A DNA stretch of 5,076 bases, from IMG/VR virus record IMGVR_UViG_2671180524_000022. The stretch is one strand, 5' to 3'. Below are positions 2,486 to 5,076 of the stretch, piece after piece. The stretch is from a virus. Taxonomy: Duplodnaviria > Heunggongvirae > Uroviricota > Caudoviricetes. How positions within the stretch are numbered: the stretch's first letter is position 1; each line of letters begins with the position of its first letter. Below the pieces are notes generated by a model that was not told the origin of the DNA, did not search any database, and saw only the letters and a list, made by a program, of their open reading frames with translations. Position numbers and translations under genes: made by a program.

Positions 2486-2880
2486 TTAGTGCATCACCAC
2501 AGCATTCCCTGCCGGGCCGCCGCGATTCATCTGGTCATACAAAACAACCGCTGACGCAACAAAATCATCGACATCCTTCACCAGCCGATCCCTCCGTTCG
2601 ACGATCTCACGGTAATATTCAGAACTGTGGCTGCGCATACGGGCCACCAGCAAAGGCGGCATCGCCTTTTCGATCGCCGGTAACAGAGCCTGCATTTTTT
2701 CAACAGCATCAGGGGTGTCTTTATCCNNNNNNNNNNNNNNNNNNNNNNNNNNNNNNNNNNNNNNNNNNNNNNNNNNAGCTCGAAATACGCTTTGGTAATT
2801 TTCGCAGCCGGTACTTTTTCGCCGTCCGGATGCGCCCAGACATTCATCGCCATGCGGATGTGTTCATGCTTGATTTTCAT
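2486..2880 (-). CDS. YdaT-like protein (cII-position gene of Rac-type prophages), interrupted by the assembly gap; true length unknown
   Basis: N-terminal piece MKIKHEHIRMAMNVWAHPDGEKVPAAKITKAYFE from ATG 2880-2878, which overlaps the cro-like stop as ATGA. C-terminal piece ...DKDTPDAVEKMQALLPAIEKAMPPLLVARMRSHSSEYYREIVERRDRLVKDVDDFVASAVVLYDQMNRGGPAGNAVVMH ends with TAA at 2488-2486. The two pieces are in different frames across the 50 N, as expected for a gap of arbitrary length. The MKIKHEHI start matches my recollection of E. coli YdaT. Confidence 0.55.
2727..2776. other. Assembly gap (run of 50 N)
   Basis: 50 consecutive n characters, seen directly. Confidence 0.97.
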
Positions 2881-3179
2881 GAATCAACTCCATCAGATAA
2901 GCATGCACTACAATCACCTTCAGCATGAACTACATGTGTTTGCCCCAAACGAATGCCGCTCGCATACTCAGGCCAAATAAGCTCCCAATCATGGGGTCGT
3001 AGCTCCGCCCTACTTACTTGGCCTTCCGTCGCAGATTCGATCATAAGGGCGCGGGTTGGAGATATAGCTGTTCGTCCAGACGCCATTTGCGATAAGTAAG
3101 ATGGCGATACACCAAGTCTGGCCGCGAATTTCTTAGCATCACCAACCCTTAATGATTTAATAAACTCTTTTAATGTCAT
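2877..3179 (-). CDS. Cro-like HTH regulator, YdaS family
   Basis: 100-aa ORF. Strong SD GAGGAAGG immediately upstream of ATG 3179-3177. HTH segment AARLGVSPSYLSQMASGRTAISPTRALMIESATEGQVSRAELRP. Divergent from the repressor gene across the operator region. Stop TGA overlaps the next gene's ATG. Confidence 0.8.
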   Translation of the reverse strand: MTLKEFIKSLRVGDAKKFAARLGVSPSYLSQMASGRTAISPTRALMIESATEGQVSRAELRPHDWELIWPEYASGIRLGQTHVVHAEGDCSACLSDGVDS

Positions 3180-3185
3180 ACCTTC

Positions 3186-3272
3186 CTCGGTTTAGTGTTT
3201 TTTTGCGAGTTTAGTGTTTAATAAACCATTAAGTCAAGTATTTGCTTGTTTAGTGATTACTAAAGATAATTA
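3186..3272. promoter_or_regulatory. Divergent promoter/operator region (OR-like) between the repressor and cro-like genes
   Basis: Direct repeats GTTTAGTGTTT (3190-3200, 3209-3219) and GTTTAGTGATT (3248-3258). Palindromes GTTTAATAAAC (3216-3226) and TTTAGTGATTACTAAA (3249-3264). Plus-strand promoter candidate: -35 TTGCTT 3242-3247, 17-bp spacer, -10 GATAAT 3265-3270. Minus-strand promoter candidate: -35 TTGACT (rc of 3232-3237), 18-bp spacer, -10 TAAACT (rc of 3208-3213). Confidence 0.5.
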
Positions 3273-3276
3273 CCAC

Positions 3277-3648
3277 ATGCAAAAAAAAGAAATTCGCCGT
3301 TTACGTCTCAAGGAGTGGTTTAAAGATAAAACTCTGCCACCCAAAGAGAAGAGCTACCTATCTCAACTAATGAGTGGGAGAGCCTCGTTTGGAGAAAAGG
3401 CTGCCAGAAGAATAGAGCAAACATACGGGATGCCGGAAGGGTATCTGGATGCGGAATACGCAGAACAACCGGGGGGTTCTCCACCACATGCAGGGTTAAC
3501 GTCTAATCAACTGGAATTATTGCAGATTTTTTCAGCCTTCCCTGAGGATGAGCAACGCCAGATAATCAGCGAGTTAAAGCAGAAAAAAGAATCAATGGAA
3601 GATCTCATAGCGAGATGGATTGCGGCGCAAAAATGCCGCCGCGCCTGA
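3277..3648 (+). CDS. paaR: HTH immunity repressor at the cI position; likely also regulator of the downstream toxin-antitoxin pair (PaaR-like)
   Basis: The track ORF starts at 3214, but the ATG at 3277 (123 aa) lies just downstream of the -10 element and clear of the operator repeats. HTH segment KEKSYLSQLMSGRASFGEKAARRIEQTYGMPEGYLD. C-terminal LTSNQLELLQIFSAFPEDEQRQIISELK resembles the DicA C-terminus as I recall it. Stop TGA at 3646-3648. Gene symbol from recalled operon architecture only. Confidence 0.7.
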   Translation: MQKKEIRRLRLKEWFKDKTLPPKEKSYLSQLMSGRASFGEKAARRIEQTYGMPEGYLDAEYAEQPGGSPPHAGLTSNQLELLQIFSAFPEDEQRQIISELKQKKESMEDLIARWIAAQKCRRA

Positions 3649-3668
3649 GTTATAAAACCGGAGGAAAC

Positions 3669-3860
3669 ATGAATAGAGCCCTTTCACCAATGGTTTCTGA
3701 ATTTGAAACCATTGAACAAGAAAACAGTTACAACGAATGGCTGCGTGCGAAAGTAGCAACGAGCCTTGCAGATCCGCGCCCAGCAATTCCCCATGACGAA
3801 GTTGAGCGCAGAATGGCAGAACGCTTTGCTAAGATGCGCAAGGAACGGAGCAAGCAGTAA
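3669..3860 (+). CDS. paaA: Small antitoxin (63 aa), PaaA-like partner of a ParE toxin
   Basis: ATG 3669 with GGAGG at 3660-3664. Product MNRALSPMVSEFETIEQENSYNEWLRAKVATSLADPRPAIPHDEVERRMAERFAKMRKERSKQ is small and charged, consistent with a partly disordered antitoxin. Its stop TAA at 3858-3860 is 1 nt before the toxin ATG. Length matches my recollection of PaaA2 (63 aa). Confidence 0.75.
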   Translation: MNRALSPMVSEFETIEQENSYNEWLRAKVATSLADPRPAIPHDEVERRMAERFAKMRKERSKQ

Positions 3861-3861
3861 A

Positions 3862-4140
3862 ATGTTACCCGTGTTATGGCTTGAAAGCGCAGATACCGAC
3901 CTAGATGATATAACTAGTTATATTGCTCGTTTCGACATAGATGCGGCTGAACGCTTATGGCAGCGATTAAGGGGTTGTGTGCTGCCGTTATCCGAACATC
4001 CGTATTTATACCCACCAAGCGACAGAGTACCTGGCTTGCGTGAGATTGTAGCCCACCCTAACTATATAATTCTATACCGCGTAACAACATCAAGCGTTGA
4101 AGTAGTAAACGTGATCCACGCAAGACGCCAGTTTCCCTAA
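3862..4140 (+). CDS. parE: ParE/RelE-superfamily toxin (92 aa)
   Basis: ATG at 3862 in the same frame as track ORF 3766..4140. Product MLPVLWLESADTDLDDITSYIARFDIDAAERLWQRLRGCVLPLSEHPYLYPPSDRVPGLREIVAHPNYIILYRVTTSSVEVVNVIHARRQFP shows the typical ParE pattern (N-terminal helices, C-terminal ...ILYRV...VEVVNVIHARR). Translationally coupled to the upstream antitoxin. Confidence 0.85.
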   Translation: MLPVLWLESADTDLDDITSYIARFDIDAAERLWQRLRGCVLPLSEHPYLYPPSDRVPGLREIVAHPNYIILYRVTTSSVEVVNVIHARRQFP

Positions 4141-4157
4141 CTTTCACTACCAATAGA

Positions 4158-4205
4158 AACATAACAACCGCAACGACTTTATCAAAAGCGTTGTGTTTGT
4201 TATGT
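4158..4205 (+). terminator. Imperfect inverted repeat downstream of the toxin gene; possible terminator or protein-binding site
   Basis: Left arm aacataacaaccgcaacg (4158-4175) and right arm cgttgtgtttgttatgt (4189-4205) pair at about 15 of 17 positions around a 13-nt loop. No clean U-tract follows, so this is not a canonical intrinsic terminator. Confidence 0.25.
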
Positions 4206-4210
4206 CCCGC

Positions 4211-4255
4211 GGTTTAGTTTTTACTTGACTTAAGTTTAATGTTTATTAAACTAAA
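4211..4255 (+). promoter_or_regulatory. Second operator/promoter-like module (OL/pL-like), rightward
   Basis: GTTTAGTTTTT (4212-4222) and palindrome GTTTATTAAAC (4241-4251) resemble the OR motifs. -35 TTGACT 4225-4230, 16-bp spacer, -10 TAAACT 4247-4252. The TTGACTTAA...GTTTATTAAAC...TAAACT arrangement is shared with the minus-strand cro promoter candidate. Confidence 0.35.
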
Positions 4256-4570
4256 AATACCAACCCACCCCGCCCCACAGAACGCAGGGAAATACTTCGA
4301 GTTACCCGGCAGTGGTCAGGGGTTAAGTAGCCAGCCCGAGGCGTATGAACATGACGGCAGGGTTCAACTTTAATAACTATGCAGCAGTTTTTTGTTCCGC
4401 TACCCCGGCGTTAAGGGGAAACAGAGGGTTTCTCAGTGGGCGAAGTCAAACATCAGAATGGAAGGCATCCCGGGATCGGCAAAGAAGCAGCAATGGCGCT
4501 TTATATTGACATCAGCGCCATTGCAGGACAGGTAAGAGTTATCAGAGCGGTAACTAAGCGGTATGCGCCT

Positions 4571-4771
4571 TTACTTCAGAAAGTCTCTGGTGAGTGCACC
4601 GAAGATATTGTCAACGATTTCGTCATCGAACTGCGAGGACTCATCTTCAGTTACAAGGTGACCACAATTTTTGCAGATGGCTCCCGCGAAACTGTCAGAG
4701 CCCTGCGGCTTAAAGGATGTGTCAAAGACTTCGCCACCACATTCTGGGCAAGAAAACTTGATTGTATTCAT
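4571..4771 (-). CDS. Small zinc-ribbon protein (CxxC...CxxC), function unknown
   Basis: Minus-strand ATG at 4771-4769 (the track starts at TTG 4777) with SD GAGAGGAA 7 nt upstream. Product MNTIKFSCPECGGEVFDTSFKPQGSDSFAGAICKNCGHLVTEDESSQFDDEIVDNIFGALTRDFLK has two CxxCG pairs and an acidic tail. Few rare codons, unlike the overlapping plus-strand ORF. Confidence 0.6.
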   Translation of the reverse strand: MNTIKFSCPECGGEVFDTSFKPQGSDSFAGAICKNCGHLVTEDESSQFDDEIVDNIFGALTRDFLK

Positions 4772-4864
4772 AACCAATTTCCTCTCGAGTAACAGACCCC
4801 TCAGAGGATACCACCTCGCCTGACGTGGTTAAAAAGCAGGCAACGCTAACCACAAGGAGCCGAC

Positions 4865-5076
4865 ATGCAGAAACGAGACCCCGTCATCATCGCGCCAGAC
4901 TATACCGATGATGAACTTTATGAGTGGATGCACCAGAAAATTAAGGCGGTGCAGGACCTGAAATGGGCCAATGAAGCCAGGGCTAAGCAGGCTGAAAATC
5001 TGTCCGCTCTGGAGCAGGATATCACCAATCTGGAAAAAGCAGCGGCATTAAGCATTGCCAGAATGATTACATACCC
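4865..5076 (+). CDS. Hypothetical protein, 5' portion only (runs off the window end)
   Basis: AAGGAG at 4854-4859, 5 nt before ATG 4865. Open to the window end: MQKRDPVIIAPDYTDDELYEWMHQKIKAVQDLKWANEARAKQAENLSALEQDITNLEKAAALSIARMITY.... Absent from the ORF track because there is no stop in the window. Coiled-coil-like composition from about residue 25. Confidence 0.6.
   Translation, partial: MQKRDPVIIAPDYTDDELYEWMHQKIKAVQDLKWANEARAKQAENLSALEQDITNLEKAAALSIARMITY

Follow-up and report, generated by a model that had tools for sequence, protein, structure and literature searches.

The PaaR2/YdaS region of Escherichia coli O157:H7, very probably the immunity switch of cryptic prophage CP-933P, and its inverted-repeat operators

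Genes and features of the locus

The window analyzed here, a stretch of 5,076 nucleotides, carries the plus-strand gene paaR2 and the divergent minus-strand gene ydaS, separated by an intergenic region of 97 bp (3180-3276), with ydaT on the ydaS side and paaA2 and parE2 behind paaR2 (Table 1). An earlier note, made from the sequence alone, had described the two divergent products as a repressor and a Cro-like protein, and they are PaaR2 and YdaS, matching PDB entries residue for residue. YdaS is identical at 100 of 100 positions to 8C7K ("YdaS from E. coli O157:H7 cryptic prophage CP-933P") and also to 8CO2; the native part of 7NKV/8C3K ("PaaR2 regulator N-terminal domain") has the same sequence as residues 1-66 of PaaR2, whose N-terminal domain is also identical to 8C3L. 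PaaA2 residues 2-63 match PDB 3ZBE/5CW7, named PaaA2 (E = 5.5e-37), and ParE2 residues 1-92 match 5CW7 chain B (E = 7e-60). The regulator, antitoxin and toxin of a three-component paaR-paaA-parE system lie together in one operon.

Table 1. Features of the PaaR2/YdaS region in window coordinates; the CI and Cro roles given are very probable.
Feature	Position	Strand	Remarks
ydaT	2486..2880	-	CII analogue; broken by a run of 49 N in this window
YdaT box TTGATTTTCATGAATCAA	2870..2887		ydaS/ydaT junction (OM, PRE933P region)
ydaS	2877..3179	-	Cro analogue, 100 aa
Codons for YdaS S27-R36 (SYLSQMASGR)	3072..3101	-	recognition helix (alpha3) and Gly turn
Half-palindrome GTTTAGTGTTTTTTTGCG	3190..3207		probable IR4, downstream of PR start
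PR933P (ydaS-ydaT)	3208..3237	-	-35 TTGACT (3237-3232), 18-nt spacer, -10 TAAACT (3213-3208); promoter scan
Inverted repeat GTTTAGTGTTTAATAAAC	3209..3226		18 bp, overlaps -10 of PR933P; probable IR3
Degenerate repeat ATTAAGTCAAGTATTTGC	3228..3245		probable IR2; holds back-to-back -35 hexamers
PRM933P (paaR2-paaA2-parE2)	3242..3277	+	-35 TTGCTT (3242-3247), -10 GATAAT (3265-3270), start A3277
Inverted repeat GTTTAGTGATTACTAAAG	3248..3265		18 bp, overlaps PRM933P; IR1 of PMC8630535 by our own mapping
paaR2	3277..3648	+	CI-analogue repressor, 123 aa, leaderless mRNA; ATG 3277 also transcription start
Codons for PaaR2 S26-R35 (SYLSQLMSGR)	3352..3381	+	putative recognition helix and Gly turn
paaA2 antitoxin	3669..3860	+	co-transcribed with paaR2; Pfam PaaA2, E = 1e-19
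parE2 toxin	3862..4140	+	Pfam ParE_toxin, E = 2e-16
OL/PL933P	4212..4252	+	operators GTTTAGTTTTTACTTGAC (4212-4229) and GTTTAATGTTTATTAAAC (4234-4251) over promoter

Positions 2800-4300 are 100% identical to many E. coli O157:H7 chromosomes, and the published cloning primers (PMC8630535) match exactly at 3180-3205, 3204-3224, and 3252-3277. This is the same locus as the CP-933P PaaR2/YdaS/YdaT region described by Jurenas et al. 2021 (PMC8630535) and Prolic-Kalinsek et al. 2023 (PMC9986795), with identical proteins, intergenic sequence and primers and no difference of substance; the 49-N mask within ydaT stands in for 80 nt of real sequence. The YdaT box agrees at every defined position with TTGATT-N6-AATCAA, the site published for this protein (PMC9986795). 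The PaaR2/YdaS switch has thus already been published for exactly this sequence, and the earlier note is a rediscovery, correctly read; that a CI/Cro switch can be recognized in this way from raw sequence is a point in favor of genome scanning. Binding, overlapping footprints, cross-repression, bistability and the leaderless start were contributed by others. Our part comprises the sequence identity, the placement of the shared motif on the recognition helix, the site statistics and the finding that related prophages keep the palindrome, and only this last comparison adds to the published account. Structures are deposited for the DNA-binding domains of both proteins, and a search by PDB code (7NKV, 8C7K, 8CO2, 8C3K, 8C3L) found no paper describing them within the set of literature covered.

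The GTG at 3214, taken as the start of paaR2 in the list of open reading frames, was rejected in favor of the ATG in Table 1: N-terminal sequencing of PaaR2 gave MQKKE, and 5' RACE mapped the transcription start of a leaderless mRNA (PMC8630535). The analysis also draws attention to over-extended gene models for this leaderless repressor.

The locus very probably serves the cryptic lambdoid prophage CP-933P (Sp12) as its immunity switch, with PaaR2 as the CI analogue and YdaS as the Cro analogue. Database names invite a different view, in which two toxin-antitoxin modules lie side by side with no phage switch, PaaR2 regulating only paaR2-paaA2-parE2 and YdaS/YdaT forming a second pair. The Pfam family of YdaS is named "YdaS_toxin", RefSeq annotates "toxin YdaT family protein" (as for ydaT in strain TR01), YdaS resembles HigA antitoxins (alignment to HigA chains spans residues 15-51), and PaaA2/ParE2 is a genuine toxin-antitoxin pair. 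However, the gene order is lambdoid, running cro-cII-O-DnaC-like in one direction and repressor-TA-PL-dicB/kil-exonuclease in the other, phage Evi (a 40-kb record) has the same immunity region, and other bacteria carry this repressor domain joined to an S24 peptidase, as in true CI repressors. Moreover, the toxin-antitoxin hypothesis for YdaS/YdaT has been rejected in the literature, where Cro- and CII-like functions were shown (PMC9986795 among the sources). A pair of toxin-antitoxin modules is therefore highly improbable, and the names "YdaS toxin" and "toxin YdaT" are misleading.

Operators and promoters

As in a lambdoid switch, the repressor and cro genes diverge from a short control region whose promoters lie back to back. 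The earlier note had described three direct repeats and two palindromes in this region. The direct repeats are where it placed them (GTTTAGTGTTT at 3190-3200 and 3209-3219, GTTTAGTGATT at 3248-3258), as are GTTTAATAAAC (3216-3226) and TTTAGTGATTACTAAA (3249-3264), but the operators are not a set of 11-nt direct repeats with two separate palindromes beside them: each unit is an inverted repeat of 18 bp with the consensus GTTTAGT-N4-ACTAAAC, recurring about every 19-20 bp. Each of the three direct repeats forms the left half-site of such a unit, and the two kinds of half-site that had been distinguished, GTTTA/TAAAC and TTTAGT/ACTAAA, represent a single one, (G)TTTAGT, in two registers.

The window holds five copies of the motif GTTTAGTGWTT with at most one mismatch, where 0.18 would be expected; none of 200 shuffled sequences had as many. 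With a threshold of 10/12, TTTAGT-N4-ACTAAA has four sites where 0.19 would be expected, and all four fall within two control regions, OR (3210, 3249) and OL (4213, 4235). Several palindromic operators thus cover both promoters and a second set lies at a distant PL, as expected of a lambdoid switch. The two clusters (3210-3265 and 4212-4251) are separated by about 1 kb.

We assigned the repeats to IR1-IR4 of the published work from its text (PMC8630535). The best operator, which we map to IR1, scores 12/12 on the 16-bp core and 8 + 8 of 9 per half-site, lies inside the published PaaR2 and YdaS footprints (PMC8630535), and has a counterpart in related loci. Probable IR3 scores 11/12 on the core and 7 + 8 of 9 per half-site and is kept as GTTTA-N-ACTAAAC in related loci. 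The degenerate repeat between them, with half-site scores of 6 and 2 of 9, is probably IR2, which is described as lacking one half-site (PMC8630535). Probable IR4 scores 7 and 3 of 9 and includes the first direct-repeat copy (3190-3200). We rejected GTTTAATAAAC as an independent operator; it is the center and right half of probable IR3 and is not kept in related loci, which have GTTTA-N-ACTAAAC at this position.

PR933P, found by a promoter scan, is supported by 5' RACE and reporter activity (PMC8630535). We assigned the hexamers of PRM933P using the sequence together with the leaderless start known from the literature; the consensus scan missed this promoter because of its weak -35. PL933P (4225-4252) has TTGACT and TAAACT separated by a 16-nt spacer, hexamers identical to those of PR. 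As AGTTTA is the -10 of PR, conservation of the palindrome may partly reflect promoters.

The shared helix motif

The near-identical SYLSQ(L/M)xSGR segments reported for both proteins are confirmed, as PaaR2, on the plus strand, contains KSYLSQLMSGRASFGEKAARRIE and YdaS, in the minus-strand frame 3179-2877, contains PSYLSQMASGRTAISPTRALMIE. BLASTP aligns the two proteins with 16/46 identities (E = 3e-4), and these are concentrated in the motif (8/10 inside against 8/36 outside; Fisher one-sided p = 0.0015). The segments are in register both by BLASTP and by profile-profile comparison; in hhalign, the PaaR2 N-terminal-domain family matches the Cro (YdaS) family at 92% probability (E = 5e-7, residues 25-49 on 26-50), with alpha3-alpha4 the only part that aligns.

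The earlier note proposed aligning both proteins to HTH models, and for YdaS this places the motif on helix 3. A motif outside the DNA-binding helix, which would have told against the note, is not what the YdaS match and the in-register alignment of the PaaR2 family show. YdaS matches Pfam YdaS_toxin at 46.5 bits (cut-off 30) and HTH_3 (PF01381) at 29.8 bits (cut-off 23; E = 6e-7), residues 16-50 aligning to profile positions 13-47. SYLSQMASG falls at positions 24-32, the helix-3/Gly position of the family, and with this above-cut-off match YdaS is a member of the XRE (Cro/C1-type) HTH family. Its single-sequence AlphaFold model is poor (pLDDT 47; 8.5 Å from 8CO2) and was left out of all three-dimensional arguments; the secondary structure of this low-confidence model has a helix at 26-34.

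PaaR2, on the other hand, is recognized by none of the HTH models of Pfam or NCBIfam, and a profile of 26 PaaR2-type N-terminal domains finds only PaaR2 itself among PDB sequences. Its recognition helix was therefore located by way of YdaS. The PaaR2 model, which fits crystal structure 8C3L at 1.6 Å rmsd, puts the S26-R35 segment in helix 22-33 but shows no canonical positioning helix alpha2, and its structural neighbors, the N-terminal domains of SinR and DdrO, are weak (TM ~0.58, E > 1). S26, S29, Q30, and G34 are invariant in both of our alignments (43 and 26 members); Y27 is invariant in the larger and at least 90% conserved in the smaller. Because PaaR2 matches no HTH model, aligns to YdaS only over alpha3-alpha4 and appears to lack a canonical alpha2, helix 22-33 is a putative recognition helix, assigned by homology in register. 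PaaR2 has no Pfam match of any kind, Peptidase_S24 (PF00717) included, and hence no S24 autocleavage domain; its C-terminal part matches the C-terminus of DicA.

Helix 3 of HTH_3 proteins commonly reads S-x-[ILV]-S-x-[ILW]-E-x-G-x-[RK], and SinR has KSYLSSIER. The shared pattern S-x-L-S-x-x-x-x-G-R is largely generic XRE-family consensus and, taken alone, is weaker evidence for common specificity than the earlier note implied.

Published binding data and the very probable mechanism

The gel-shift, footprinting and reporter experiments that the earlier note suggested had already been published. In EMSA, purified PaaR2 and YdaS each shift the 97-bp intergenic fragment, and their DNase I footprints on this fragment overlap, that of PaaR2 being continuous over ~78 bp and that of YdaS split into 27 + 32 bp, of which the PRM side is occupied first (PMC8630535). 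Reporters of PR933P, PRM933P, and PL933P are repressed by each protein, PL933P about 100-fold by either (PMC8630535). Single-cell work revealed bistability that needs both proteins, and stop-codon mutants of either gene lose one of the two expression states (PMC8630535). Together, these footprints, reporters and single-cell data bear out a bistable cI/cro-type switch with competition for operators.

The differing shapes of the two footprints would also suit proteins that read different interleaved elements, for example PaaR2 the direct and YdaS the inverted repeats, the shared motif then being no more than the helix consensus, in which Y and Q alone are distinctive. The authors likewise saw direct ("pseudosymmetrical") repeats, noted two repeat kinds and left the exact binding sequences to be determined (PMC8630535), and a 24-nt direct repeat, 83% identical between its copies, lies at 3202-3225 and 3241-3264. 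That 24-nt repeat is not kept outside E. coli, however, and we rejected it as a conserved unit, whereas repressor helix, Cro helix and TTTAGT-N4-ACTAAA palindrome are kept together across 47 related loci. Separate elements also fit poorly with the overlap of the footprints, the repression of all three promoters by both proteins and the concentration of identity in the helix, and we regard them as unlikely. We favor common recognition of the inverted repeat and infer that the S-Y-x-x-Q residues common to both recognition helices read the same TTTAGT half-site.

In the mechanism that we consider very probable, PaaR2, which is octameric, is made from a leaderless mRNA starting at A3277 and YdaS is transcribed divergently from PR933P, both proteins binding common 18-bp inverted repeats that overlap the back-to-back PR933P and PRM933P; beyond the toxin-antitoxin genes, another two or three copies cover PL933P. 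Low levels of PaaR2 repress PR and PL and stimulate PRM, and high levels repress PRM as well, while YdaS fills the PRM-proximal site first and then its own promoter. Which repeat is the first to be occupied by either protein is, at base-pair resolution, our inference. The two proteins repress each other and compete for the sites, which gives two heritable expression states, and paaA2-parE2, carried on the same transcript as the repressor gene, take the place that rexAB has in lambda.

Related prophages

We compared 47 related loci, in prophages of Gamma- and Betaproteobacteria, in which the PaaR2 repressor domain occurs with a divergent YdaS-like Cro. Their intergenic regions hold 13.9 copies of the palindrome per kb compared with 0.20/kb elsewhere, a ~70-fold enrichment; at least one site is present in 46 of the 47 loci, and 32 have further sites downstream of the repressor operon. 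A search across these loci for covariation of recognition-helix residues with half-site bases gave no signal either way because both are almost invariant. PaaR2 N-terminal-domain homologues in Serratia, Yersinia and Erwiniaceae carry PF00717, and the length of a tblastn match indicates that a Proteus homologue probably does as well.

Based on these observations, we tentatively suggest, as quite possible though short of probable, that the CP-933P switch is one case of a widespread and unusually uniform immunity type. Its members would combine a PaaR2-type domain, joined to either an S24 autocleavage domain or a non-cleavable DicA-like domain, with a YdaS-type Cro whose helix reads S-[YF]-L-[SR]-Q and TTTAGT-N4-ACTAAA sites at OR and OL, and would recur in prophages of Enterobacterales, Pasteurellaceae, Orbaceae, Burkholderiales and Nitrosomonas. 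If the near-invariance of helices and half-sites means real cross-recognition, distantly related prophages would have a common immunity specificity. The comparative data would also settle the question left by the authors, the inverted and not the direct repeat being the binding unit. The palindrome, conserved across genera, also offers ready natural variants for a base-level recognition code of PaaR2 and YdaS.

Comparison with known switches

The locus resembles lambda cI/cro in its divergent repressor and cro genes, palindromic operators common to both proteins over back-to-back promoters, a second operator set at PL, a leaderless repressor mRNA, accessory genes behind the repressor gene, and bistability. 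In both systems the repressor at low dose activates its own promoter and Cro takes the PRM-side site first. Lambda, however, has three 17-bp operators, whereas CP-933P has four 18-bp repeats spaced 19-20 bp apart, and YdaS is an all-helical XRE domain without the lambda Cro fold. PaaR2 has a DicA-like C-terminal domain in place of the S24 autocleavage domain, so the switch is unresponsive to SOS and, unlike lambda, shows no SOS induction.

In the phage 434 (and P22) pairs, as here, both partners are XRE-type HTH proteins with recognition-helix residues in common that compete for the same operators; the 434 recognition helices share Gln-Gln-Ser, the counterpart of S-Y-L-S-Q in PaaR2 and YdaS. 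The operator sequence differs, and the PaaR2 N-terminal domain is too divergent for any HTH model and, in its structural model, appears to be without a canonical alpha2.

The E. coli K-12 prophages Rac (RacR/YdaS/YdaT) and Qin (DicA/DicC) have the same gene layout. Their YdaS and YdaT homologues are 26% and 31% identical (literature figures), their YdaT box is almost identical, the YdaT proteins cross-bind, and the C-terminus of Qin DicA resembles the C-terminal part of PaaR2. [quoted passage not shown]

Identity of the Locus and Gene Models

The ORF map of the window corresponds to a lambdoid early region (see table). In PDB sequence searches, the plus-strand protein is PaaR2, with an N-terminal domain identical to 7NKV, 8C3K, and 8C3L, while the minus-strand protein is YdaS "from E. 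coli O157:H7 cryptic prophage CP-933P", identical to 8C7K at 100/100 positions. Many E. coli O157:H7 chromosomes carry positions 2800-4300 with 100% identity, and phage Evi matches this stretch at 98.3%. In Evi (LR597642.1), whose 40-kb record was deposited as that of a phage, the same immunity region lies at 3001-4501 of locus L002, where the parE2 stretch has no annotated CDS.

Features of the PaaR2/YdaS region, in window coordinates
Feature	Position	Strand	Details	Source
YdaS, 100-aa HTH protein	3179-2877	-		ORF map
YdaT-like gene, O-like replication initiator, DnaC/IstB-like ATPase	leftward past YdaS	-		ORF map
PaaR2, 123-aa protein	3277-3648	+		ORF map
PaaA2 antitoxin	3669-3860	+	matches 3ZBE and 5CW7 (PaaA2 + ParE2)	ORF map
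ParE toxin (ParE2)	3862-4140	+	matches 3ZBE and 5CW7 (PaaA2 + ParE2)	ORF map
Operator core sites	3210, 3249, 4213, 4235		11/12 at 3210, 12/12 at 3249	16-mer scoring
OR repeats, 18-mers	3190-3207, 3209-3226, 3228-3245, 3248-3265
PR		-	-35 TTGACT, -10 TAAACT	promoter scan
PL	4225-4252	+	hexamers those of PR	promoter scan

Leaderless translation of paaR2 from MQKKE and 5' RACE starts for both promoters have been reported (PMC8630535); the true start of paaR2 is 3277. Gene callers over-extend this leaderless gene upstream, through the operators (3214-3276), giving products of 144 or 150 aa (start at the GTG at 3214), and such over-extended models (P0001 and P0002) prevail in the protein database, where their clusters count 231 and 153 members.

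A run of 49 Ns (2728-2776) lies within ydaT, where strain TR01 and phage Evi have 80 nt, so ydaT is 31 nt shorter and carries a false frameshift that yields two partial ORFs, 2578-2880 and 2486-2695. The O-like gene holds six head-to-tail 15-bp units (TCAAC-N-GTTGA-N-GGG-like, 2039-2128), which are presumably origin iterons, comparable to the lambda ori inside gene O. Downstream of PL are a minus-strand gene for a small zinc-ribbon protein with two CxxC pairs (4571-4777), called "ECs_2282 family putative zinc-binding protein" by the corresponding RefSeq entry, and a YdfC-like ORF on the plus strand (4865-5076).

The Shared Motif and the Recognition Helix

PaaR2 and YdaS align without gaps (16/46 identities, E = 3e-4), and in this pair the identities are concentrated in the SYLSQ(L/M)xSGR motif (8/10, vs 8/36 at other positions; p = 0.0015). 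YdaS residues 16-50 match positions 13-47 of the Pfam HTH_3 profile above threshold, and residues 15-51 align to HigA antitoxin chains. From the HTH_3 match and the usual layout of this family, we take P26-S34 of YdaS to be helix 3 and G35 to be the conserved glycine that follows it. PaaR2 itself matched no HTH model. Profile-profile comparison of 26 PaaR2-type N-terminal domains with 29 partner Cro proteins gave 92% probability (E = 5e-7) in exact register, PaaR2-type 25-49 against Cro 26-50, with alpha3-alpha4 the only alignable part. A single-sequence model of PaaR2 agrees with crystal structure 8C3L (1.6 A, TM 0.87) and places SYLSQLMS in helix 22-33. The HTH_3 match, the in-register alignment, and the PaaR2 model together place the motif inside the DNA-binding helix of YdaS and the putative one of PaaR2, as the earlier note had proposed from sequence. 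XRE proteins often carry S-x-L-S...G-R, which leaves mainly Y and Q as the distinctive residues that PaaR2 and YdaS share.

In the model fitting 8C3L, PaaR2 residues 1-21 (3277-3339) form a single long helix (3-15) and then a Pro-rich loop (16-21). At this position XRE proteins carry alpha1 and alpha2; in the model, the loop stands in for the canonical alpha2. Invariance is as high in the FGEKAARRxE segment (PaaR2 38-47) as in the SYLSQ helix.

Operators and Promoters

All of the elements previously described were recovered where they had been placed. GTTTAGTG(T/A)TT occurs in three copies, starting at 3190, 3209, and 3248; allowing up to one mismatch raises the count in the window to five vs 0.18 expected, the two extra ones being at 4212 and 4234. 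When 16-mers were scored against TTTAGT-N4-ACTAAA, four sites in the window reached the cut-off of 10/12 vs 0.19 expected. The feature is real, clearly exceeding what chance would produce. Its parsing requires a small correction: the repeats are genuine, but those listed as direct repeats are the left halves of palindromes, and GTTTAATAAAC, while present, belongs to the 3209 repeat, of which it forms the inner and right portion. Among the OR 18-mers, only those at 3209 and 3248 have two good halves, which agrees with the report that IR2 and IR4, of the four inverted repeats in the intergenic region, lack one half-site (PMC8630535). The outer half-site of the 3209 repeat is the -10 of PR.

Relatives across Genera

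PaaR2 has 156 homologues. Many of them combine the PaaR2-type N-terminal domain (up to 83% identical) with an S24 peptidase domain, the arrangement of true CI repressors; such S24 fusions occur in Serratia, Yersinia, and Erwiniaceae. In the Proteus loci, the match is confined to the N-terminal domain. PaaR2 residues 72-119 (3490-3633) instead match the C-terminus of DicA, the repressor of the Qin prophage (NCBIfam NF007257, E = 1.4e-6, far short of the full-length cut-off). The pattern looks like a shuffling of domains between repressors that can be cleaved and those that cannot.

Scanning one genome per species yielded 64 PaaR2-type loci; in 47, a divergent upstream YdaS-like gene has S-[YF]-L-[SR]-Q-[MLIV] in the corresponding position. 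The intergenic layout of these 47 loci is strikingly conserved (GAGTTTA-N-ACTAAAC ... GTCAAG-TATTTGCTTGTTTAG-N-TACTAAT), and palindrome density is 13.9 per kb in the intergenic regions vs 0.20 per kb elsewhere in the loci. At least one palindrome site is present in 46/47 loci and at least two in 30/47, with further sites downstream of the repressor operon, at the expected OL position, in 32/47. Within the palindrome, T2, T3, T13, and A15 never change and T1, A4, and A14 scarcely do, while the central four bases are free to vary. Because the palindrome is conserved whereas the related loci do not retain the 24-nt direct repeat seen in E. coli, the comparison favours the inverted repeat as the recognised unit. 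It also shows joint inheritance of repressor helix, Cro helix, and half-site; all three are nearly invariant and therefore offer no usable covariation.

In the Xenorhabdus khoisanae locus (L017), an ORF of tandem THNTIYR/THNAIHS units (2164-2463) occupies the cro position, which suggests replacement or disruption of the switch on its cro side.

Comparison with the Published Switch

Exactly this DNA was studied by Jurenas et al. 2021 (PMC8630535), whose primers map to 3180-3205, 3204-3224, and 3252-3277. By EMSA and DNase I footprinting, they found a PaaR2 footprint of ~78 bp and an overlapping YdaS footprint of 27 + 32 bp, the PRM side being filled first. They described four 18-bp inverted repeats at equal spacing, with GTTTAGTAA as the consensus of the half-sites, as well as "pseudosymmetrical" direct repeats, and themselves stated that the precise binding sequences are still to be determined. 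PR933P (ydaS-ydaT) and PRM933P (paaR2-paaA2-parE2) are both repressed by PaaR2 and by YdaS, PRM is activated at low PaaR2, and PL933P, with OL operators downstream of the toxin-antitoxin genes, is repressed ~100-fold by either protein; there are two expression states, each needing one of the regulators (PMC8630535). Another study assigned TTGATT-N6-AATCAA as the site of YdaT, the CII analogue (PMC9986795), and an exact match, TTGATTTTCATGAATCAA, lies at 2870-2887, spanning the overlap of the ydaS stop and ydaT start.

Given the published binding, footprint, and reporter results, the three experiments proposed in the earlier note have already been done, all with positive outcomes, and its reading of a bistable cI/cro-type switch with common operators is supported, with small corrections to operator parsing. 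The PaaR2/YdaS switch is already known in detail; only the conservation of the repressor/Cro/operator triad across genera, and the resulting support for inverted-repeat recognition, are modestly new.
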